Shown: positions 17,267 through 29,704 of the stretch, one piece after another | Position numbering within the stretch: position 1 is the stretch's first letter | Layout of the letters: the number at the start of each line of letters is the position of its first letter | Source: Candidatus Hermodarchaeota archaeon | GTDB lineage: Archaea > Asgardarchaeota > Heimdallarchaeia > Hodarchaeales > Hodarchaeaceae | NCBI GenBank assembly: GCA_048886185.1 | Contig: JBHLKY010000007.1 | Location: forward strand, 60,001 to 92,000 | Reading direction: 5' to 3' | DNA: 32,000 nucleotides | Made by a program: the position numbers and the translations under genes | The notes under the pieces: model-generated | What the model was told of the DNA's origin: nothing | The model's input: only the letters and a program-made list of their open reading frames with translations | Database searches by the model: none

Positions 17267-18136
17267 ATGTACGATTTCAATATTCATTCACCTTCAACCT
17301 TGAATGAAGCGCTGGAATTAAAAGCTACTCATGGAGTAGATATACATCCTTTTGCTGGAGGAACTGATGTCCTTGTTAGTCTGAGAAACAATCGGGTCGA
17401 TTGGGGTGAACGTCCCTCTCTTTTAAACCTGAATAAAATTCAATCACTTCGCTTTATCAAAGAGTCCTCTAAAACTGTTGAGATTGGTCCTCTTATGACT
17501 CATAGTGAGATATCTAAAAATCCGCTTATTCAAAAACATATTCCTGCTTTAGCCAAAGCAGTTTCATTTATTGGATCACCTCAAATTCGCAATCGAGGTA
17601 CTATTGCAGGTAACATATGTCATGGAAGTCCTGCTGCAGACTCGTTACCTATTTTATATTGTCGTGGTGCTGAAATTGAAGTTCAAACCCAGACCAACAT
17701 CACTTTGACTCCTATCGATGAATTTCATATTGGCCCAGGTGATATTAATATTGATGAATACGGATTAGTAACAAAAATAATTGTCCCTAAGCTTCCTTAT
17801 TACGTAAGTGATTATCTTACTCTTCGCCAACGTCAAGCTCTATCCTGCAATGTGGTATCAGTTGGAGTTGAAGCTCTTATATCTGACAATGGAAAAAAAA
17901 CTGAGGATATACGAATAGCTCTTGGTGCTGTTTCTCCTACAGTCGTTCGTGGAAAGAAGACTGAGAATCTTTTAACAAGCAAAATATTAACTGAAAGTTT
18001 GATTAATGTGGCTTCTAATCTAATTAAAACTGAATGTATTCCTATTGATGATGTTAGATCTAATAAAAATTATCGTCAAGCTATGACAGGGGTTTTATTG
18101 AATAGATTTCTTCACAATCTTCTAAGAAATACTTAA
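17267..18136 (+). CDS. Xanthine dehydrogenase family, FAD-binding subunit (module 1)
   Basis: PFAGGTDV, IGSPQIRNRGTIAGNICHGSPAADS, RIALGAVSPT and PIDDVRSNKNYR. Confidence 0.95.
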   Translation: MYDFNIHSPSTLNEALELKATHGVDIHPFAGGTDVLVSLRNNRVDWGERPSLLNLNKIQSLRFIKESSKTVEIGPLMTHSEISKNPLIQKHIPALAKAVSFIGSPQIRNRGTIAGNICHGSPAADSLPILYCRGAEIEVQTQTNITLTPIDEFHIGPGDINIDEYGLVTKIIVPKLPYYVSDYLTLRQRQALSCNVVSVGVEALISDNGKKTEDIRIALGAVSPTVVRGKKTENLLTSKILTESLINVASNLIKTECIPIDDVRSNKNYRQAMTGVLLNRFLHNLLRNT

Positions 18137-19956
18137 ACATCACTCTTTTTATTTTTCTCGGTTATGGGTAATTTAAAAACAAACTTGGCTCCGTGAGGTT
18201 TGATATCTTCTATCCAAATCTTGCTTTTATACGATTGAAGAATTTCTAGGCTTATTGAAAGGCCTAATCCGCTACCTACTTTATCCTCTGAGCCAATACT
18301 AACGAATGGTTTGAAAATTTCATCCTTGATTTCCTCGGGTACTCCAGGTCCATGATCACTGATACTACATACCCAAAAATGATCCTCCTTATTCACAGAG
18401 ATCTCAATTGCATCATCTGGAGGACTCCATTTTAAAGCGTTGTCTAAGAGATTATTAAAAACACTACGAAGACGGAGATCTGCAAGGGTGTAAATTTCGG
18501 GGTCTGAAGGCCAATTAACATTAAGATTCAAATTCTTGGCTTTAATTGCACTCTTAAAACTGGATATTACCTCGCTAATGGTTTCTTTCAAATTTATTAA
18601 GGACAGATCCTTAGGTTCCCCGAAAGTTCCCATTGTTTTCAGGTAGCTACGAACATCTGTTATGATTTCTTGCATTTGGTTTGCCTTGGCATCAATTCCA
18701 TCCAAAAATTCCTTTAATTCATCATATTTCTGAACCAGTGTTAATTCTTTTCTTAAAACATCAGTAAACCCTTGAATAACCATTAATTGATTTTTCATAT
18801 CATGAGAGATGACAGTTAATAGAGAATTTTTAAACTCAATACTCTTCCTAAGAAGCGTTTCAATTTCCTTTTCTAAAGAAATATTTTGCACAATGTAAAT
18901 GAAACCAATGGTTTCACCTTTATCGCGTAATGCTTGGAGTGTTATCCGAAAAAATTGATTTCGTGGTCGGGGTAGTTCAAATTCCATCTCAAATTGAATG
19001 GGTTCCTCAAGGATTTCTGTTAACGAATGTTCAATATGACGTATTCCATCGTGATATGGTTCCAACCTTTTTTCTGAATAGAGAATTGAGAACAGATCGC
19101 TTCCAATGATATTAGGACATTCTCTTTCAAATATGTACTGACAAGCTGGTTGATTTATCTCGATGATTCGATTATCTTTAGTTGTTGTAATTATACCAAT
19201 TTCTGCGAGATTAGTAATAATGAATTGATGTGCAAAAGGTACTATATCAAGAAAACTTATTTCGAATATAGCATATGTAAACACAATATAGGCAATTACA
19301 AATGATATAGGTGTTAGATCTATATCTATGGTTGGAATTAAATAGAATATTCGGATGATATTGCCTATAATAGGAGCCGTTGAACCAATTATTAAAACTA
19401 GAAGTTGTTTTTGGTATAGTGGGTTGGATTCTGATGATTTTATATATGTCTGAACTAGTAGATAATATCCAAATGCGAGAAGTAAGTATGAATAAACAAC
19501 ATTTGTGTAGAAGAGTAGTCCATAGGTTAAATCTAAGCTTGAACCAAAACTTGAAGATTGTACTCCAACTGATACATAAAAAAGGGAATGAGATTCGTTT
19601 GTTAGCAAGAAAAAATAGTGGACAAGAGAGGGGAAGAAGAGGAAGGCTAAAATTGGTTTGGATATAATTTCATGCCGATGGGTAAATGCCAGAATAAATA
19701 AAAGAAAAAAAGGAGGAAGAGTTAGAATCCCCAAGTATTGGATGAAATTCCAAAACATCATTGTCGCTTCATCAGTAGCAGCCAGCTCAAGAAAGTATCC
19801 AATACACCATAATACTGTACTTGCAACCATTGCCAAGAAATAAATGGCAACTCGAGATTTTTGGCGGTAATAAAGAGGGTAAAATAACAAAAATAGTGCA
19901 AGAATCGAAATTGTTCCCATTAATAACGCATATGGAGATAGTTCATAAGCCATCAA
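18133..19956 (-). CDS. Sensor histidine kinase: N-terminal 7TM domain, PAS-like domain, HisKA and HATPase
   Basis: About 7 TM helices with HisKA_7TM-like motifs (LWCIGYFLEL; DLTYGLLF; DLTPISF). H-box SHDMKNQL, N-box NNLLDNALKW, G1 DHGPGV, F-box IFKPF and G2 GSGLGL. Confidence 0.93.
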   Translation of the reverse strand: MMAYELSPYALLMGTISILALFLLFYPLYYRQKSRVAIYFLAMVASTVLWCIGYFLELAATDEATMMFWNFIQYLGILTLPPFFLLFILAFTHRHEIISKPILAFLFFPSLVHYFFLLTNESHSLFYVSVGVQSSSFGSSLDLTYGLLFYTNVVYSYLLLAFGYYLLVQTYIKSSESNPLYQKQLLVLIIGSTAPIIGNIIRIFYLIPTIDIDLTPISFVIAYIVFTYAIFEISFLDIVPFAHQFIITNLAEIGIITTTKDNRIIEINQPACQYIFERECPNIIGSDLFSILYSEKRLEPYHDGIRHIEHSLTEILEEPIQFEMEFELPRPRNQFFRITLQALRDKGETIGFIYIVQNISLEKEIETLLRKSIEFKNSLLTVISHDMKNQLMVIQGFTDVLRKELTLVQKYDELKEFLDGIDAKANQMQEIITDVRSYLKTMGTFGEPKDLSLINLKETISEVISSFKSAIKAKNLNLNVNWPSDPEIYTLADLRLRSVFNNLLDNALKWSPPDDAIEISVNKEDHFWVCSISDHGPGVPEEIKDEIFKPFVSIGSEDKVGSGLGLSISLEILQSYKSKIWIEDIKPHGAKFVFKLPITEKNKKSDV

Positions 19957-20193: not shown

Positions 20194-22533
20194 TTAGTGC
20201 TTGTGTTCTTGGATTGATTTTAATACTCTATCAGGAGTATAAGGAGGTTCAGTTATACGAATACCAATTGCGTCATAAATAGCATTAGAAAGACATGGTA
20301 AAGGACCGCTAATATTTGGTTCTGCAATTGATTTTGCACCAAATGGCCCTGATGGCTCGTAAGTCTTTACAATAATGGTTTTTATTTCAGGTAAATCAAC
20401 TGTTGTCATAATCTTATAATTCCCGAATGAAGGATTTAACATCCTTCCCTGAGAATTAAAGTAATAACGTTCGCTTAAAGCATAGCCCAATCCGTTTACC
20501 AATGCGCCTTCAGTTTGGCCAATGACTAGTTTAGGATTTATTGGCGTTCCACAATCTATTGCTGCAACATATCTCAAAACTTTCACTTTTCCAGTCTCAA
20601 GGTCTACCTCTACTTCAGCAAAATGAGCGCAAAATGGGGGAGGTGATTTTCGTGCTAGTTCTGAAGCGATTGCACCAATCTGTTGTTGATTTTCAGTATA
20701 GAAGGCTTTTGTGCCTATTTCAGTAAAACTCAATGATGCTTTAGTTTTAGAGTGAAATACAGTCTTATTTCTTAGTTCAAGTTCATTAACGGGAAGATTC
20801 ATTAGTACTGCAGCATAATCAAGAATTTGTTGCTTTATCTTTTCAGCTACATTCTTAACAGCCATCCCAGATAGATAAGTCGTAGATGAGGCGTAAGCTC
20901 CTTTATCGAAAGGTGTAATATCAGTATCCGAAGAAAGAACAACGATATCCGTTCCAACATCAAGGTTTAAGACTTCTGCAAAAATTTGAGCTAAAACAGT
21001 ATCACTTCCAGTTCCAATATCTGTTGCTCCAACCATAAGATTGAATGAACCATCGTCATTCATTTTTGCGTAAGCGCCTGCCATGTCAATATAAGGGATC
21101 GCAGAGCCTTGCATAAGGCATATTAACCCAAAACCTCGTTTTTTCGTTTGAGTATTGTATTTTTTCTTATGTTCTTCACGAGACCACCATCCAATGGCAT
21201 CCGCCCCTTGTTTTATACAATCAGAAAGCCCACAAGAATCAATTGTTTGCGCATGGCCTTCAGTACCTTCACCAAGAGCTTTGAAAATGGGGGAGGTCTC
21301 ACCAGGTTTGATATGGTTCAATAACCTAAACTTGGCTGGATCCATACCAATTTTTCTAGCAAGTTCATCCATAACAATTTCTATTGCGAAAGCAGCTTGT
21401 GTTCCCCCATATCCTCTGTAGGCTCCTGCTACAGGTAAATTTGTGTAGACAGTATCACCAACAAAGCGGATGTTGTCACAGTGATATAATGGTAAGGTCT
21501 TGCCTCCAGTATTACTTAATACTGTTAATCCATGAGTTCCATATGCACCAGTATTACTAAGTACTTTCATATCTATAGCAGTAATTGTGCCATCTTTCTT
21601 GACCCCAGCCATCAATCTTATTGTCATTGGGTGACGTGTTCGGGCGGAAATAAATTCTTCTTTTCTTGTGTACTCTAATTTTACTGGTCTCTTTAATTGA
21701 AGTGTAAAGGAAGCAGCAATTATTTCTGTAATGATTTCTTGTTTTGCACCGAAACCTCCTCCTATTCGGGGCTTTATTACCCTTACCTTAGCAATTGGGA
21801 GATTCAAAACTTGAGCTATTATTCTTCTTGCATGGTATGGAACTTGAGTAGCTGACCGTACAACCAACCGATCATGTTCATCTAAATATGTAATTGAAAT
21901 ATGAGGTTCTAAAGGACATTGTTGGCCATAATGATTCCTAACTATACGATCTACAATATAATCAGCTTCAGTAAAACCTTGGGTAATATCCCCTACCTCG
22001 GCGTCTATGTGAGCTACATGATTGTTGGATGAATCATAAAAAACGGGAATAAGGTATTTAGAATCACCTTCATCATGAATCACAATTTTATTACCTAAGG
22101 CTTGATCCCAATCGAGAATAGGTTCTAATACTTTATATTTCACTTGAATGAGCTTTATAGCTTCTTCAGCTATCTTTAGTGATTCAGCCGCAACTGCAGC
22201 TACTCGATCTCCTACATATTTCACTTTTTTGTTGAATAAACGTGTATCATATGGACTTGGTTCGGGATATCCTTGGCCTGCAGTTGTGTGAAGGATCTGA
22301 GAGCAATTTTTGTGGGAGATTATTCCTAATACTCCTGGGTATTTTTCTGCTTCACTAGTGTCAATATCAGTAATTATAGCGTGAGCGTGCGGACTATATA
22401 GTAGTTTTACATGAACAACATCCTTAAAGTCCATATCATCCGTAAATAATGGTTTTCCCATCGCCAAACTGAGAGCATCAACTTTAGGAACGCTCTTGCC
22501 AATTATATTACCTTCAAAAATCTTTGGATCCAC
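20194..22533 (-). CDS. Xanthine dehydrogenase family, molybdopterin-binding subunit (module 2; E. coli XdhD/YgfN-like)
   Basis: TAGQGYPEPSPYD, QCPLEPH, IGGGFGAKQE, GAYRGYGGTQ, GATDIGTGSDT, AYASSTTY and GPFGAKSIAE. Confidence 0.94.
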   Translation of the reverse strand: MDPKIFEGNIIGKSVPKVDALSLAMGKPLFTDDMDFKDVVHVKLLYSPHAHAIITDIDTSEAEKYPGVLGIISHKNCSQILHTTAGQGYPEPSPYDTRLFNKKVKYVGDRVAAVAAESLKIAEEAIKLIQVKYKVLEPILDWDQALGNKIVIHDEGDSKYLIPVFYDSSNNHVAHIDAEVGDITQGFTEADYIVDRIVRNHYGQQCPLEPHISITYLDEHDRLVVRSATQVPYHARRIIAQVLNLPIAKVRVIKPRIGGGFGAKQEIITEIIAASFTLQLKRPVKLEYTRKEEFISARTRHPMTIRLMAGVKKDGTITAIDMKVLSNTGAYGTHGLTVLSNTGGKTLPLYHCDNIRFVGDTVYTNLPVAGAYRGYGGTQAAFAIEIVMDELARKIGMDPAKFRLLNHIKPGETSPIFKALGEGTEGHAQTIDSCGLSDCIKQGADAIGWWSREEHKKKYNTQTKKRGFGLICLMQGSAIPYIDMAGAYAKMNDDGSFNLMVGATDIGTGSDTVLAQIFAEVLNLDVGTDIVVLSSDTDITPFDKGAYASSTTYLSGMAVKNVAEKIKQQILDYAAVLMNLPVNELELRNKTVFHSKTKASLSFTEIGTKAFYTENQQQIGAIASELARKSPPPFCAHFAEVEVDLETGKVKVLRYVAAIDCGTPINPKLVIGQTEGALVNGLGYALSERYYFNSQGRMLNPSFGNYKIMTTVDLPEIKTIIVKTYEPSGPFGAKSIAEPNISGPLPCLSNAIYDAIGIRITEPPYTPDRVLKSIQEHKH

Positions 22534-23000
22534 TATTTTTCACCTCTCATAATTGCAGCAGCGTTAAGAACTGCTTTAAGTTGGCCAGAATATCCAGTGC
22601 ATCGACAAAGATTTCCATCTAGTGCTTGTTTCACTTCATCTTTGGTTGGGGAAGGATTTCTATCCAAAAGCGCTTTAGCACTAATTAAAATCCCAGGAAT
22701 ACAAAATCCACACTGTACTACTCCCTCATTAACAAAGGCTTGTTGAAGTGGATGGGGATTTTCACGAGTACCAATTCCTTCAATTGTAGTTATTGAACCT
22801 TCATGGGCTTGAGCCGCAAATAATATACATGATTTTACAGCTCTTCCGTTCAAAATAATGGTACAAGCTCCACATTCTCCTTCTGCACATCCTCTTTTTA
22901 CCCCTTTATATCCCTCTTTTCGTAAAACATCTATTAGGAGGTCATCTGATTCAATTACCAGAGTTTTGGTTTCACCATTAATAGTTATATTAATTTCCAT
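22533..23000 (-). CDS. Xanthine dehydrogenase family, 2x[2Fe-2S] subunit (module 2)
   Basis: GVKRGCAEGECGACT...KSC and QCGFCIPG...NLCRCTGY. Its TAG stop shares base 22533 with the GTG start of the next gene. Confidence 0.95.
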   Translation of the reverse strand: MEINITINGETKTLVIESDDLLIDVLRKEGYKGVKRGCAEGECGACTIILNGRAVKSCILFAAQAHEGSITTIEGIGTRENPHPLQQAFVNEGVVQCGFCIPGILISAKALLDRNPSPTKDEVKQALDGNLCRCTGYSGQLKAVLNAAAIMRGEK

Positions 23001-23009
23001 TGTTTTTTT

Positions 23010-23828
23010 TCAACCTTCTATCATTTCTTTCAGCATTCGCTTAAAAAACACACCTAAAAGATGTTCTCGATAAGCTTTTGAACACCTATAATCCGCTACT
23101 ATTTTTACTGATTTCCTTAAGGTTTTAACGGCGGCATCTGTATCCAAATTAGAAAGTAATTTCCCCTCAAGAAATTCCTCTACCTGACTCACTCTTTGAG
23201 CTTTAGTTATTCGAGAAACTGCAAGGTGAGGATCAATAATTCTTCCTTTTTCATTCTTTGCTGAAAAAGCCATTGTTAGCCATGAATAATCTACTTTAGT
23301 TGATGAAAACTTTTCATATCGACAAAAATAATCGTTTTGATAAGGAAAAATAACTTCTGTTATGATTTCTCCTTTCTTTAATTTATTGATCATAAAATAA
23401 TCGTTCGCAGTAACTTTTTTAGTTCCTTCTAGAGTTTTTATTTCAATTTCTGCATCTAACACAAGTAAAACGATTGGTAGACCCACCCAAGGAAAAGTTC
23501 CTGCAATATTCCCCCCGAAAGTGATAACATTACGAAGAGGAGTGTCTCCAATGAATTGGCATGCTTTCGTCAATATTCCATTACCAATTTCAGCTATTAT
23601 AGGTGATTCAATCATTTCAGTAATTGTAGTTGTACTACCCACTCGTATAAATTCTTGGTCTTTTTTTATATAATTCAGTCCTAATCGTGTAATATCAACA
23701 AAATTCGATATAGTTCGATTTTTTGAAGTAGTTAGATGAGTTCCACCTGCAACAATGACTGTAGACTCTTTTGAAAGCAGATTAAGTGCCTCTTCTAAGC
23801 TAGAAGGATAATAATATTCTTGGGTCAT
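23010..23828 (-). CDS. Xanthine dehydrogenase family, FAD-binding subunit (module 2; YgfM-like)
   Basis: YYYPSSLEEAL, IVAGGTHL, LRNVITFGGNI and ADYRCSKAYR. Confidence 0.9.
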   Translation of the reverse strand: MTQEYYYPSSLEEALNLLSKESTVIVAGGTHLTTSKNRTISNFVDITRLGLNYIKKDQEFIRVGSTTTITEMIESPIIAEIGNGILTKACQFIGDTPLRNVITFGGNIAGTFPWVGLPIVLLVLDAEIEIKTLEGTKKVTANDYFMINKLKKGEIITEVIFPYQNDYFCRYEKFSSTKVDYSWLTMAFSAKNEKGRIIDPHLAVSRITKAQRVSQVEEFLEGKLLSNLDTDAAVKTLRKSVKIVADYRCSKAYREHLLGVFFKRMLKEMIEG

Positions 23829-24357: not shown

Positions 24358-24963
24358 TTATGTCTCTAAAAAAGATTTTAGCTTGATTAAATCTTCATGC
24401 TTGTCCACATCAAGAAGAATTTCTGGTGAATTAGTAGAGAGAAAGACTATATCATCTATAAACCTAGTAAGGATTTCTTTCATTCCTCTTTTTTCTTCTG
24501 AAATATTTTTAACATCTTCAAAAAGCTCTGAACTGATTAAAATAGGATGACCTTTTTGGTTCTGAAAGGTGGGGATAATTATACGAGAGATATGAGAATA
24601 AAAATAATCAATAAGTTGGTTAAAGACCTTAGAAGGGATTAAAGGTATATCAGCAGGAGTAATCAGAAGTGCATGGCTATCTAACGATAATTCTAACCCT
24701 CGACGGATGGAGGATGACATACCACCTTTTCTATAATCAGGATTAATCACAATATGAAGTGATTCATTAGATAGACCTTGAACTTTCTTACTGAAAAAAC
24801 CTGCTTCATGACCTAAAACTACTACTGTACGATCTACTCTTGAGGCCGTAATAGACTTTAGAAGAAATTCTAATATTGTGATATTCGGTTTGATTTCAAA
24901 TAGTAATTTATTTCCTTGGAATCGTTGAGATTCACCAGCAGCTAGTACAATACAGGTAATCAT
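24358..24963 (-). CDS. mocA: Molybdenum cofactor cytidylyltransferase (MocA-like nucleotidyltransferase)
   Basis: IVLAAGESQRFQGNKLL, NPDYRKGGMSSSI, LITPADIP, GHPILIS and LLDVD; adjacent to XDH-family genes, which use the MCD cofactor. Confidence 0.88.
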   Translation of the reverse strand: MITCIVLAAGESQRFQGNKLLFEIKPNITILEFLLKSITASRVDRTVVVLGHEAGFFSKKVQGLSNESLHIVINPDYRKGGMSSSIRRGLELSLDSHALLITPADIPLIPSKVFNQLIDYFYSHISRIIIPTFQNQKGHPILISSELFEDVKNISEEKRGMKEILTRFIDDIVFLSTNSPEILLDVDKHEDLIKLKSFLET

Positions 24964-25245: not shown

Positions 25246-26412
25246 TCATTCATTTTTTGATCCAAACGCGAGTGAAAGGATTTCTGTGATGTTTTCCCAT
25301 TCTTCGTCAATTTTTTCCCATGTTCGAAATTCTCTAAATAGTCGTTTACGAAAAGGAAGGATCATTTGAGACATTAATGAAAGTTTCTCGTGAGTTGGAT
25401 GCGCTAGGATTTCCCTTTCGATATTCTGAAGCGATTTTTCATCCCAATCTGGATATAATTTTCCAAGTTGTTCACCTAAAAATAAACCAAGCTCTAATCC
25501 CGTTAGAATCCCAGAACCACCTGAGGGGTTAACTTGTCCTGCAGCCTCACCAATAATAAAGCAATACTCTGAATAGATTTTCGATACTGGTCCACCCATG
25601 GGTATTGTTGTCTGAATTACGTCATAGAATCTCCAAATATGTATCTTTTTCTTGATTATAGGGCTTTTTAATACTACATTCCAGACTTCCCAATAATTTG
25701 GTAAGGGATCAATAGACACTTCTGGGAAAATAATAAACCCAAATTCAGCATTTTGTTGTCCGTGAGGAAAAATAAAACTTGTACCTGCTACATCTAAATT
25801 ATTATCAGAGAAAAACAGAAATTCCATATCATTTTCATCATATTCTCCAAAAAAGTGTCCTCTAATAATTGGACAAAGTGGAGTTGGTTGTGGTAAGTGC
25901 AGGAGCTGAGCTGTAATACTTTTTGCTCCTTCTGCTCCTACAATTACTCGTGAGGTTAAAGTGATTGATTTATTTTTTAACAGATCATTAATTACTAATT
26001 GTATTCGTCCATTTGGTAACGGTTCCAAGTTTATTACCTTAGAGTTTACTCTAAGAAATACATTATTCAAGACCACTTGTTTTGCTAGTTCATTTAGAAA
26101 AAGCCGGAAATCTATCCAAACTCTATTAATATCATCTTCTAGATGGAATGATTTATTTCCTGATGGAGAGTAATAATTTCTCCCAAAAGGCTTTATTTCA
26201 GTAACAAAAGCTTTTTTAGCTTGATCTTTGGGAAAGATTTTTGATAAAATTTCTGGCCGATAATGAATTGATTGTCCTTTTAGTTGATTCCCAAGAGTAG
26301 ATTGCTGTTCTACAATTAGGACTTTTTCTAGACCATTTCTTTTCGCTCCTAGTGCTGTTGCCAAACCAGCAGGACCAGCACCGATTATGATTAAATCAAA
26401 GTCATTAACCAT
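25246..26412 (-). CDS. Geranylgeranyl-reductase-family FAD-dependent oxidoreductase
   Basis: DLIIIGAGPAG, VIVGAEGAKS, FIFP and IIGEAAGQVNPSGGSGI. Confidence 0.82.
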   Translation of the reverse strand: MVNDFDLIIIGAGPAGLATALGAKRNGLEKVLIVEQQSTLGNQLKGQSIHYRPEILSKIFPKDQAKKAFVTEIKPFGRNYYSPSGNKSFHLEDDINRVWIDFRLFLNELAKQVVLNNVFLRVNSKVINLEPLPNGRIQLVINDLLKNKSITLTSRVIVGAEGAKSITAQLLHLPQPTPLCPIIRGHFFGEYDENDMEFLFFSDNNLDVAGTSFIFPHGQQNAEFGFIIFPEVSIDPLPNYWEVWNVVLKSPIIKKKIHIWRFYDVIQTTIPMGGPVSKIYSEYCFIIGEAAGQVNPSGGSGILTGLELGLFLGEQLGKLYPDWDEKSLQNIEREILAHPTHEKLSLMSQMILPFRKRLFREFRTWEKIDEEWENITEILSLAFGSKNE

Positions 26413-26686
26413 TTGTGATCGCTCATTTACTTGAAATTTTTATTGGATTTCTACAATTCTTAAAGGATTCTTAAGATCAAAGAAAGTTCTTTATTCTTCA
26501 ATGATCTTTCTGTATTTTATGTTATTAAAATGCTGTTATTTATACTTAAACTGGAATTTAATAGTTTTGTTCCAGTAGGAACTCTTCATTTTCAACAGAT
26601 AAACTGTTGGGAATAGAAAATAATATTAAATAAGAGTACTGATTGAGCGTATTACTATAAGATTTTTCATTAAAGGAGTTACCTTT

Positions 26687-29600
26687 ATGGCAACAATTGA
26701 GTTAGATAAGGTCAAATCCCCCGCTATTAGTGGTCATTCAATTGAGTTGAATAAACTTGTTTCCGATTTGGATTCAAATTTGGAGAAGGGCATTTCTCAA
26801 GAGGATGCTACAAAAAGACTTTTAAAATATGGTCCGAACGTAATTCCCAAACCTAAACAGAGTTTCTGGCAAGTATATCTCGCTCCATTATTAAACACAT
26901 TAATAGTCATATATTTAGTCATGACTGGTTTTATACTTATTCTTGCACTCATTTATTTACTCATAAATCCAAGTGATCCTTCTATATGGTTTACAGCAAT
27001 CCAATGGATAATAATTGTAGGGGTGAACTTTCTAATTGCAATTGTTCAACAAGCACGTGCTCAAAAAAAGATAGAAGCACTGCATAAGCTAGCGGCACCC
27101 GAAGCACGTGTTATTCGCGATGGATCAGAATTCGAAATACCTACTGAGGAAGTAGTCCCTGGTGATATCATCAGAATCGCTCAGGGGGACAAAATTCCTG
27201 CTGATGCCCGTGTTGTAAAATCCAGCTCGTTACAAGTTAATGAATCATCTTTAACTGGAGAGAGTGTTCCTACTACCAAAGTAGAAACGGGTGAAATCAT
27301 CTTTGATGCTGATACTCCCATTGGAGATCGAAAAAACATGTTATTCAATGGAACTTTTGCGACTATGGGTTCTGGATTGGCACTAGTTGTGAATACGGCT
27401 GGAAACACAGAATTTGGAAAAATTAGTCTTGAATTGGAAGAATTGAACACTGGAGACATTCCTATAAGGCAAAAAGTTAATGTTATCGGCAATTATCTGG
27501 CATTTGGGATGTTAGTCGTCTTTAGTATGTTAATAATCTATCAAGGAGCAAGAATTCTTGATAAATTAGAGCAAGGATATCTTAGCTTTAATGAACCAAT
27601 CAGATTGCTTGGAGAAATTATTTTCGAATTAAGTAATATCATTATCAAAGCGATGAGCGTTGTTCCCATTAATATCCCCTTATTGACAACAATCATCTTA
27701 ATTACAGGCGTTCTTGCCATGGCTAAGCATAAAGTAATTATTAGGAACTTAGCTTCAATTGAAAGCTTGGGTAGAATCTCCATTCTGTGCTCTGATAAAA
27801 CAGGCACCATTACTGCTGGTCAAATGACAGTTAAAAGGATTTGGGATGCCACCACAGATAAACATTATTTTGTTACTGGCTTAGGATACTCTCCAGAAGG
27901 AAAAATTGTTGAATTAAGAGAAAACTTTGAAAAGATAAAAGAAAATGAGGCAAGAGATCTTACTGCGAAGTCAGTTGAGTTAGACTCCTCTTTGGGAATG
28001 TTGATTACATCAGGCATGTTGAATAATGATAGTGAGATTATTGAAGAGTATATTGAAGCCACAAAGAAGTATGCTTACACTGGAACAGGAAGTCCAACTG
28101 AAAGTGCACTATTGGCTTTATTTAACAAAACCCAGATAGAAAAAGGAAAGGTCAAAGAGAAATTTGAAACATTACGAGAATATCCTTTTGATTCATCATT
28201 GAAACGAATGAGCAAGGTTTTCAAAACCAATGATTCTAAAATTATCGTTTTTACCAAAGGGGCTACTGAAGTTCTCTTACCGATGTGTGAGAGGATAGGA
28301 TACGATAAAAAGGGAGGAAAACAGTTATCCAAAAATGATAAACAGAAAATATTAGACTCCACAGAGAAGTTCGCAGGCCAAGGTTATCGAATTCTATCTC
28401 TTGCCTATAAGACTGTTGACAAACTTCCTGAAAAGGGAGACGAAGAACGAGACGAAATTGAATCTCATCTCTCATATCTTGGTTTTGTTGCAGTTTTAGA
28501 TCCTCCTAGAGACCTCGTTGACAAATCCGTTGATGAAACAATAAAAGCTGGAATTGTGCCAATAATGATTACAGGAGATTCTCCTGTAACAGCTTCCTCC
28601 ATCGCTAATAGTATTGGAATGGTTTATCAAAAGGAACATCAAACACATGAAGGAAAGATGGCTTCAGAGCTAGCTGATAAAGATTTTGAAAATACACGTG
28701 TTTTTGCGCGTGTTGCGCCTCAAGATAAACAGATTATTGTTGCACGTTATCAAAATAGAGATCGTGTGGTTGCAATGACTGGTGATGGAGTAAATGATGC
28801 TCTTGCACTGAGTATGGCTGATGCAGGCATTGCTATGGGGATTGCTGGAACAGAAGTGAGTAAGCAAGCAGCTGATCTTGTTATTGCAGATGATTCCTTT
28901 AACTCCATTGTAACAGGTATCAGAGAAGGTCGGGCGTTATTTCAACGAATCAGAGTGATAATATTCTTTTACGTATGTGTAAATTTAGCTGAAGCAGGTT
29001 GTTACATAGGTGCTTCATTCATTTCTGGTTTCATTCCAGGTTTTGAACTCATGGATCATTTGCAACGGGCTTATATTTTTGGTATTGCACACACATTTCC
29101 TCCACTTGCATTGATCATTGATGGAATCCCCAAAGATATTATGGATCGTAGTCCGATTGATACTGCTGGAATATTTAATAAAAGGTTAGGTTTAACGTTA
29201 CTAATTACTTCGATTAGTCTTGCGGTCGTTATTTATGTAGTTTATTTTTCAACATATTTTGGTTTCTTCTTTCCTGTAAATTTGGAATTTGTTAATAATT
29301 ACTACATCCCAATTTTTCATGACGATCCCTCTGTTGCGGAAAATAATCTTAGACCGCTTTCTTGGAACCACGCTAAAGCTCGAACGTATATGCATACTAT
29401 CTTATACCTTGCTATCCCTCTGATTATTCTATCAATTCGTCGCATAGATAAAAGTCTCTTTAAAGCAATTAAAGAGGATTCGTACTGGTTCACATATGTC
29501 CTTGCGTTCTCAATAATTCCCATACATTTGGTTTTAATGTACATTCCACTCTTTCAAAATTTGATAGCAAATTTTGGGCTTTATGTAGATATTATTGCAC

Positions 29601-29704
29601 TCGAGGTTAACGATTGGATCTTATGTATTATCGCTGCATTAATACCTCTATTTGTGCTTGAGTCACTAAAATGGTTTAACAGAATAAGAGGGCAGTATTA
29701 TTAG
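26687..29704 (+). CDS. P-type ATPase with P2-like scaffold and atypical transport site
   Basis: LQVNESSLTGES, CSDKTGT phosphorylation site, KGATE, DPPR, MITGD, FARVAP, MTGDGVNDA, about 10 TM helices; AGGAG at 26674-26678. Confidence 0.95.
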   Translation: MATIELDKVKSPAISGHSIELNKLVSDLDSNLEKGISQEDATKRLLKYGPNVIPKPKQSFWQVYLAPLLNTLIVIYLVMTGFILILALIYLLINPSDPSIWFTAIQWIIIVGVNFLIAIVQQARAQKKIEALHKLAAPEARVIRDGSEFEIPTEEVVPGDIIRIAQGDKIPADARVVKSSSLQVNESSLTGESVPTTKVETGEIIFDADTPIGDRKNMLFNGTFATMGSGLALVVNTAGNTEFGKISLELEELNTGDIPIRQKVNVIGNYLAFGMLVVFSMLIIYQGARILDKLEQGYLSFNEPIRLLGEIIFELSNIIIKAMSVVPINIPLLTTIILITGVLAMAKHKVIIRNLASIESLGRISILCSDKTGTITAGQMTVKRIWDATTDKHYFVTGLGYSPEGKIVELRENFEKIKENEARDLTAKSVELDSSLGMLITSGMLNNDSEIIEEYIEATKKYAYTGTGSPTESALLALFNKTQIEKGKVKEKFETLREYPFDSSLKRMSKVFKTNDSKIIVFTKGATEVLLPMCERIGYDKKGGKQLSKNDKQKILDSTEKFAGQGYRILSLAYKTVDKLPEKGDEERDEIESHLSYLGFVAVLDPPRDLVDKSVDETIKAGIVPIMITGDSPVTASSIANSIGMVYQKEHQTHEGKMASELADKDFENTRVFARVAPQDKQIIVARYQNRDRVVAMTGDGVNDALALSMADAGIAMGIAGTEVSKQAADLVIADDSFNSIVTGIREGRALFQRIRVIIFFYVCVNLAEAGCYIGASFISGFIPGFELMDHLQRAYIFGIAHTFPPLALIIDGIPKDIMDRSPIDTAGIFNKRLGLTLLITSISLAVVIYVVYFSTYFGFFFPVNLEFVNNYYIPIFHDDPSVAENNLRPLSWNHAKARTYMHTILYLAIPLIILSIRRIDKSLFKAIKEDSYWFTYVLAFSIIPIHLVLMYIPLFQNLIANFGLYVDIIALEVNDWILCIIAALIPLFVLESLKWFNRIRGQYY

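Follow-up and report, generated by a model that had tools for sequence, protein, structure and literature searches.

P-type ATPases are classified by the signatures of their transport sites, and the question raised by the locus described here is what such a pump carries once that signature has been rewritten. The window analysed (the whole stretch of 32,000 nucleotides, positions 60,001–92,000 of contig JBHLKY010000007.1 in GenBank assembly GCA_048886185.1, from Candidatus Hermodarchaeota archaeon) contains at 26687–29704, on the plus strand, the gene of a P-type ATPase with PINIP in transmembrane helix 4 (TM4), an NxxE motif in TM5 and a histidine in TM6, a combination found in no described subclass. 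Judged by its conservation, the protein is an intact, selected and working pump of the P2 fold, and we tentatively favour the view that it moves H+ or a monovalent cation through one site.

The gene is a single long open reading frame of 1,005 codons plus stop, taken from the open-reading-frame listing and its translation; GGAG, a Shine–Dalgarno-like element read directly in the sequence (26675–26678, plus strand), lies 8 nt ahead of its ATG. A riboswitch search of 26300–26800, 5′ of the gene, returned nothing near any Rfam gathering score. The product has the full P2/P3-type set of Pfam domains (Cation_ATPase_N, E1-E2_ATPase, Cation_ATPase, Hydrolase and Cation_ATPase_C), none of its Pfam hits is a metal-binding N-terminal domain, and alignments with homologues span it from residue 1 to the end. 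In the translation, TGES, the dephosphorylation motif of the A domain, is at T190–S193 (27254–27265), DKTGT with the phosphorylated Asp370 is at residues 370–374 (27794–27808), and GDGVND, the P-domain hinge and Mg2+ site, also seen in the alignments, is at residues 699–704 (28781–28798), all on the plus strand. Having the motifs DKTGT, TGES and GDGxND as well as A, P and N domains, the protein belongs to the superfamily of P-type ATPases (HAD-IC), whose model TIGR01494 gives it 249 bits against a cut-off of 62.

Further along the same strand are the segments expected to line the transport site. The unwound segment of TM4 reads V326-P327-I328-N329-I330-P331 (27662–27679, with PINIP, residues 327–331, at 27665–27679); TM5 keeps N766-L-A-E769 (NLAE, 28982–28993), equivalent to SERCA N768 and E771; and TM6 reads F798-G-I-A801-H802-T-F-P805 (29078–29101), with the codon of His802 (29090–29092) at the helix break. 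An initial annotation of the locus had placed PINIP, DKTGT, NLAE and the histidine, each at exactly these coordinates, and had correctly reported TGES and GDGVND. Its by-eye mapping of SERCA E309 to Ile328, N796 to Phe798, T799 to Ala801 and D800 to His802 is reproduced by HMMER alignment with Listeria LMCA1 and by MAFFT alignment with canonical P2A pumps.

Whether these substitutions are conserved or mark a decaying gene had been left as a check, and the alignments indicate that they are conserved: Glu769 and His802 do not vary, and their bearers form one clade. Across 67 aligned family sequences, whose columns average 40% identity, Pro327, Glu769 and His802 never vary and Asn766 is kept in at least 90%, well beyond what chance would give; Asn329 is conserved in 93% of family representatives. 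DKTGT is invariant across the family, as are G191 and E192 of TGES, with T190 and S193 at 90% or above. The 120 closest homologues (43–82% identity) retain DKTGT in every case, TGES in 117 and GDG[VI]ND in 119, and wherever the relevant sites are covered, P-I-[NSTA]-I-[PT], NxxE and a TM6 His are all present. Acidic residues of the entry path in TM1 and TM2 are neutralised family-wide, with Asn for Asp at position 70 and Gln for Glu at position 122.

A further change lies in TM8, where family alignments place Ile910 (29414–29416, plus strand) at the position of SERCA E908. This position is Glu in 93% of family representatives (78 E, 37 I and 2 L in the closest-homologue set), and Ile910 is confined to the Hodarchaeales subclade containing the studied gene (35 full-length sequences of 64–82% identity), elsewhere in whose alignment no compensating acidic residue was found. 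The replacement of the TM8 Glu therefore leaves Glu769 as the sole carboxylate of the transport site, and the candidate site consists of Asn329, Asn766, Glu769 and His802, with one negative charge. The same subclade has Val326 before the TM4 Pro, where 91% of the other close homologues (the crown group outside the Hodarchaeales) have Met; in deep branches of the clade this Met is not conserved. On these alignments, Ca2+ site II has been erased (E309 to Ile328, N796 to Phe798, D800 to His802) and a site-I-like pocket rebuilt around Glu769 and His802. Ligands have been lost stepwise, site II in the clade and then the TM8 Glu in the Hodarchaeales, a natural series for structure–function work.

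The family was delimited as a clade by its signature (P-[hydrophobic]-N-x-P in TM4, NxxE in TM5 and His at the D800 position in TM6) together with monophyletic placement; the studied ATPase has both, and departs from the clade norm at TM8, with Ile910 for Glu. An exhaustive search of 1.8 billion cluster representatives found P-[IFWLV]-N-x-[PVI] in TM4, NxxE in TM5 and the TM6 His in 47 of the best 150, and past these representatives the match list switches to canonical PEGLP, NxxE and NxxTD. In a quick IQ-TREE analysis of 88 rows, all 38 His-bearing rows and one secondary loss (P0137) form a single clade, with a support of 100 in the Shimodaira–Hasegawa-like approximate likelihood ratio test and a stem length of 0.43, and the studied ATPase falls in its derived crown group. 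The classes P2D, P4 and P5 were compared by profile scores and fold ranking instead of by the tree. In P0137 the TM6 His is gone, and so is the TM5 Asn (PVSIP in TM4, SIAE in TM5); this member sits on a branch of 0.96, the median being 0.68, and may represent a second change of function, or decay.

Two surveys define the distribution of the clade. The family peptide pattern QR[AIV]YIF[SGA][ITF][AI]H, scanned over 185,579 species genomes, occurs at 65 loci, whose titles, where they name a lineage, are all Asgard (Heimdall-, Hod-, Thor- and Promethearchaeota), the rest reading 'uncultured archaeon'. At E ≤ 1e-150, a threshold that admits only the studied gene in its own genome and excludes the canonical paralogues, 291 of the 400 Asgard genomes surveyed have a match, as do 72 of the 90 rated high-quality and 63 of 85 genera; many Asgard genomes have two family copies. 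The deepest-branch members that carry names are Promethearchaeota or Helarchaeota, many being without a source name, and named family members are all Asgard bar one labelled Bathyarchaeia. The search for PINIP-type homologues suggested by the initial annotation thus returned an Asgard-wide clade, and the Asgard host that it had supposed is borne out by the taxonomy of homologues and loci. Going by tree and surveys, the clade is old, diverse and nearly universal in Asgard archaea.

Subclass membership was judged by the equivalog cut-offs of NCBIfam, and every subclass equivalog scores the ATPase far below its cut-off, in keeping with the earlier proposal of a pump outside the standard subclasses. 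The PMR1 model TIGR01522 comes first (404 bits, cut-off 798), followed by the ENA model TIGR01523 (398 bits, cut-off 645), the SERCA model TIGR01116 (379 bits, cut-off 703), the PMCA model (352 bits, cut-off 507), the P3A model TIGR01647 (312 bits, cut-off 615.5), the P5 model TIGR01657 (251 bits, cut-off 618), the P1B model TIGR01525 (208 bits, cut-off 346) and the P4 model TIGR01652 (103 bits, cut-off 431). Four further family members give the same order of models, with 86–147 bits for P4 and 205–240 bits for P5. As a control, an ordinary P2A paralogue from the studied genome gives 117 bits with P4 and 272 bits with P5; the family scores are no higher than these, and the profiles therefore indicate no special likeness of the clade to P4 or P5.

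The AlphaFold2 model of the ATPase (predicted local distance difference test score 88.2, predicted template-modelling score 0.82) has ten TM helices. The TM4 helix breaks at 324–328, and TM6 is divided into helices 791–801 and 804–810, interrupted at 802–803; the model that the initial annotation had proposed for TM4–6 and TM8 thus has its breaks at PINIP and His802, the sites singled out there, while the change from Glu to Ile910 in TM8 had escaped that annotation. Among the best 50 Foldseek matches of this model in the PDB, all are SERCA, SPCA1, LMCA1, Na,K-ATPase or H,K-ATPase (P2A or P2C, template-modelling scores 0.6–0.8) and none is a P4 or P5 structure. The predicted fold is that of a ten-TM P2-type ATPase.

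Closest in both respects are the P2A pumps (LMCA1, SERCA and SPCA1/PMR1), which provide the best sequence matches (LMCA1, 373 bits) and the best fold matches (about 1,000 aligned columns), and which share with the ATPase the ten-TM architecture, the long N-terminal Cation_ATPase_N domain and the TM5 NxxE. Set against this likeness, the ATPase scores at about half the P2A equivalog cut-offs, its clade is separate and monophyletic, and the TM4 Glu and TM6 N..(T/N)D ligands of P2A pumps are missing, PEGLP being replaced by PINIP and N..(T/N)D by F..AH, with TM8 Glu changed to Ile in the subclade and the acidic residues of TM1 and TM2 neutralised in the family. P3A proton pumps, whose hallmarks are a TM6 Asp that accepts the proton and a TM5 Arg, resemble it in having a hydrophobic residue after the TM4 Pro and then a second Pro (PVALP in the P3A pump of its own genome), and, on the favoured reading, in being single-site pumps with a built-in charged partner for the carboxylate. 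The Asgard protein instead carries His in TM6 and Glu in TM5, and in alignment with the own-genome P3A pump His802 faces the TM6 Asp and Ala768 the TM5 Arg.

P4 flippases are recognized by DGET in the A domain, PISL in TM4 (which puts Ile at the E309 position), a Lys in TM5 and an obligate Cdc50-type β-subunit. In common with them the ATPase has Ile straight after the TM4 Pro and lacks the cation-ligand carboxylates of TM4 and TM6, but it has TGES in place of DGET, PINIP in place of PISL and a TM5 (FFYVCVNLAEAGCYIG) without Lys, scores below the P4 cut-off and has no Cdc50-like neighbour at the surveyed loci; the initial annotation had already noted the missing DGET, TM5 Lys and P3A-type TM6 Asp, which the translation and the alignment to the own-genome P3A pump confirm. 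Hallmarks of P5 pumps are PP(E/D/A/V)LP in TM4 and extra N-terminal TM helices; here TM4 reads VPINIP, the AlphaFold2 model has no extra N-terminal helices and the P5 score is below its cut-off. The idea that the protein might inform the origin of P4 and P5 pumps from a P2 scaffold is not supported by these comparisons: its P4 and P5 scores are no better than those of a P2A paralogue, the best 50 folds are all P2A or P2C, and no partner gene is universal. In a recent review, P4 and P5 pumps are described as bearing no resemblance to prokaryotic P-type ATPases (PMC10654040).

One comparison that bears on the substrate is with the P2D ENA pumps of fungi and bryophytes, which have IPASL in TM4, ENIAQ in TM5 and TSGLPD in TM6, lack an E309 or D800 equivalent, and are proven Na+/K+ pumps by mutagenesis (PMC10779151). 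Like them, the ATPase is P2-type and has neither Glu at the E309 position nor Asp at that of D800, and the ENA profile TIGR01523, its second-best, is the only top-ranking P2 profile that aligned unbroken, over residues 29–860. ENA pumps differ at the E771 position, where they have Gln and the Asgard family Glu, and in TM6, where they have Thr-Ser and the family Ala-His; the ENIAQ and TSGLPD motifs are thus not those of the ATPase, which also scores below the ENA cut-off. This likeness is one of motifs and profile score and does not show a specific relationship. For the histidine, there is a parallel in the P1B-4 pumps (sCoaT, CtpD, PfeT), where an invariant and essential M6 His adjoins a Glu (HEGxT), one ion is moved per cycle, and the His has been suggested to serve as a built-in counter-ion, perhaps also as a ligand (PMC8880997). 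The point of resemblance is an invariant TM6 His in a pump that moves, or here would move, one ion per cycle; the scaffold is another (8 TM helices, with SPC in M4 and HEGxT in M6, both absent here), and the TIGR01525 score is below its cut-off. The resemblance is one of principle, not of descent. Both precedents bear on the initial annotation, which had read the removal of Ca2+ ligands as pointing to a non-cation substrate: ENA pumps move Na+ and K+ without E309 and D800 equivalents (PMC10779151), and P1B-4 metal pumps have an essential M6 His (PMC8880997).

In the preferred mechanism, one site serves to pump H+ or a monovalent cation. The catalytic machinery is standard, with ATP phosphorylating Asp370 and the TGES loop (Glu192) dephosphorylating it. 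The pocket that is left is formed by Asn766 and Glu769 of TM5, His802 at the TM6 helix break, Asn329 of TM4 and, presumably, carbonyls in the unwound stretch of TM4. In each cycle a single small cation would bind from the cytoplasm in E1 and be released outside in E2P. Since the site holds one negative charge, H+ (possibly by way of a Glu–His proton relay) or, as for ENA pumps, a monovalent cation is the most likely cargo.

Support comes from the existence of cation pumps without a TM4 Glu, namely ENA with IPASL and TSGLPD (PMC10779151) and the own-genome P3A pump with PVALP, and from the intact motifs and strongly conserved unusual residues, the predicted P2 fold with its breaks in TM4 and TM6, the single carboxylate of the subclade, the single origin of the clade, its housekeeping-like spread, the neutralised entry path and the lack of a metal-binding N-terminal domain. 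The other pumps of the genome (4.84 Mb, 96% complete) are consistent with such a role. Besides the studied protein, its seven P-type ATPases include P1B pumps for Cu and for Zn/Cd, a true P3A H+ pump (G000:C2:249578–252094, with PVALP in TM4 and ND in TM6) and two or three canonical P2 pumps of the PEGL type, so Cu, Zn/Cd and canonical PEGLP Ca2+-type pumps are already present.

Several points weigh against this mechanism. The ion is deduced from site chemistry, Na+ and K+ are not usually bound by His, and the Glu769–His802 contact is placed by homology to the SERCA sites. The own-genome P3A pump is a true proton pump (1,013 bits with TIGR01647), although such pumps have a patchy distribution among Asgard archaea (67 of 400 genomes) and are rare in the genus (2 of its 21 other genomes), and an H+ role for the clade would therefore usually not be redundant. 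Lastly, the two carboxylates and His, often with a TM4 Met, of most of the family would also suit a divalent transition metal, and ZnuABC, DtxR-type repressor or Ni-superoxide dismutase genes occur near the ATPase in some lineages.

These last points lead to the main rival, a transition-metal pump (Mn2+, Fe2+, Co2+, Ni2+ or Zn2+) with a borderline-metal site on the P2 scaffold, which we regard as possible but doubtful. Its ligands would be His802, Glu769 and the two Asn, joined in most of the family by the TM8 Glu and TM4 Met. The invariance of His802 agrees with it, as do the family consensus of two Glu, one His, two Asn and, in 91% of the crown group outside the Hodarchaeales, a Met before the TM4 Pro, and the use of an M6 His–Glu pair, with the His essential, by P1B-4 Zn/Co pumps (PMC8880997). 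Metal-related neighbours are found as well (ZnuA, ABC-3 and ABC_tran genes in the heimdallarchaeal block, Ni-superoxide dismutase and an Fe_dep_repr_C regulator beside the orthologue P0033), but each is confined to one synteny block and none is common across subclades. In the Hodarchaeales subclade, moreover, neither the TM8 Glu nor the TM4 Met is retained, which would leave one carboxylate to face a 2+ ion; the Met is unconserved in deep branches, no metal-binding N-terminal domain is present by Pfam, and the genome already has its Cu and Zn/Cd P1B pumps. By its site residues, a metal pump fits the family consensus better than it fits the Hodarchaeales subclade. A Ca2+ (or Mg2+) pump working through what remains of the site-I-like pocket is far less probable. 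Its best profile and structure matches are Ca2+-ATPases, the N768 and E771 equivalents are kept, as is that of E908 in most of the family, and the database label is that of a Ca2+ transporter, yet the scores lie far under the equivalog cut-offs, the genome keeps two or three canonical pumps with PEGLP, NxxE and NxxTD, and the studied protein offers one carboxylate plus His. To our knowledge, all single-site Ca2+ pumps use site II (E309, N796, D800), the site that is erased here.

Carriage of a lipid, polyamine or other organic molecule is unlikely, though less so than a Ca2+ pump. The Glu769–His802 pair would then neutralise the canonical site, like the P4 Lys, and the cargo would take another path gated by Ile328. 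Ile at the E309 position, as in P4 PISL, and the loss of most cation ligands are in line with this, and lipid-related genes adjoin the ATPase in some lineages (YhhN in about 7–10 Hodarchaeales loci, VTT/DedA between tandem copies). However, Ile or Val stands at the E309 position in P3A proton pumps too, YhhN is absent from the studied window, and the protein has TGES, not DGET, a TM5 without Lys and a TM4 without a double Pro; nor do P4 and P5 profile scores rise above those of canonical P2A, P4 or P5 structures appear among the best 50 fold matches, or the neighbours surveyed include a conserved partner subunit. A bolder variant, of slightly lower probability still, would have the Glu769–His802 pair act as a self-neutralising plug (compare the P4 Lys and the P3A Arg), the clade carrying something other than a simple metal ion, be it a lipid or an organic cation, or serving the Asgard cell membrane as its chief electrogenic energiser of P type; if true, a prokaryotic P2 scaffold would be seen leaving classical cation pumping. 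Least probable is a decaying or non-transporting paralogue, whether pseudo-pump or pure regulator. The stepwise loss of ligands and the loss of the His in the clade member P0137 could be taken that way, but the frame is open over its full length, the catalytic motifs are all invariant, the same site recurs in the 35 subclade sequences, and an old clade nearly universal in Asgard archaea is not what decay would leave.

A literature search on PINIP and on Asgard P-type ATPases found no paper describing the clade; a transportome study lists Asgard proteomes with 'orthologs of a putative Ca2+ ATPase' only (PMC7997004), and the database annotation of the clade is 'Ca2+-transporting ATPase'. The clade is present in about three-quarters of the sampled Asgard genomes, where it is much commoner than true P3A pumps. 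Old, diverse and widespread as it is, the clade probably belongs to the core machinery of ion or membrane homeostasis in the archaea most closely related to eukaryotes. Identification of the substrate would correct a widespread annotation and add a specificity class to a textbook family, and would tell whether Asgard membranes depend, in the manner of eukaryotes, on P-type pumps for their energisation or maintenance.

Within the window, the gene stands alone between divergent neighbours, an FAD oxidoreductase gene upstream and M28 and M20 peptidase genes downstream. Farther upstream, all on the minus strand, are a xanthine-dehydrogenase-family molybdoenzyme operon (large subunit, 20194–22533; 2Fe-2S subunit, 22533–23000; FAD subunit, 23010–23828), the adjoining gene of a MobA-like NTP transferase (24358–24963) and that of a histidine kinase whose N-terminal part is 7TM (HisKA_7TM, PAS, HisKA and HATPase_c domains; 18133–19956). 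Two 7TM histidine kinases are likewise encoded upstream of the ATPase orthologue P0033 (locus L014).

In a synteny survey of 82 loci (65 + 17), restricted to linked genes, no neighbour common across subclades was found, a Cdc50-like subunit included; synteny is conserved only inside subclades. Hodarchaeal loci have the xanthine dehydrogenase–MobA block syntenic with the ATPase, often with a YhhN gene directly upstream. Heimdallarchaeal loci have ZnuABC, KaiC-like and nucleotidyltransferase genes on one side and FAD/Fe-S genes on the other, thorarchaeal loci have an S8 peptidase gene and PanB beside the ATPase, and in one large Asgard genome family (f20) TFIIB-like and GNAT genes flank tandem copies. 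An 'ABC ATPase' that seemed to be a neighbour in both hodarchaeal and heimdallarchaeal loci was rejected as a clustering artefact of the generic ABC_tran domain; the hodarchaeal one pairs with a gene for about 1,000 residues, not with ZnuABC.

The YhhN-family (lysoplasmalogenase-like) gene is co-directional with the ATPase gene and directly upstream of it (for example L014:5207–5908 and L017:1588–2298), with a gap of 92 bp in L014. At L014:10025–11968, beside P0033, are a Ni-superoxide dismutase gene, an S26-type peptidase gene and that of a DtxR-type (Fe_dep_repr_C) regulator, an arrangement seen in one lineage only.

Tandem family paralogues occur in f20 (loci L088–L092, for example L089:7989–14549; also L065 and L098). 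In the f20 pair, one copy has a PINIP-type TM4 and N[IV]FEG in TM5, the other a PINLP-type TM4 and N[IL]ME[AS] in TM5; in L090 the two are separated by a VTT/DedA-domain gene. Two Asgard orthologues have a single in-frame stop, TAG in G041:C131:1714–4668 and TAA in G021:C111:2046–4700, and may be pseudogenes or assembly errors. Five other proteins, P0162, P0164, P0172, P0230 and P0244, are canonical PEGL-type P2 ATPases of about 1,600–1,700 residues, with some 650–780 residues before the pump domain.

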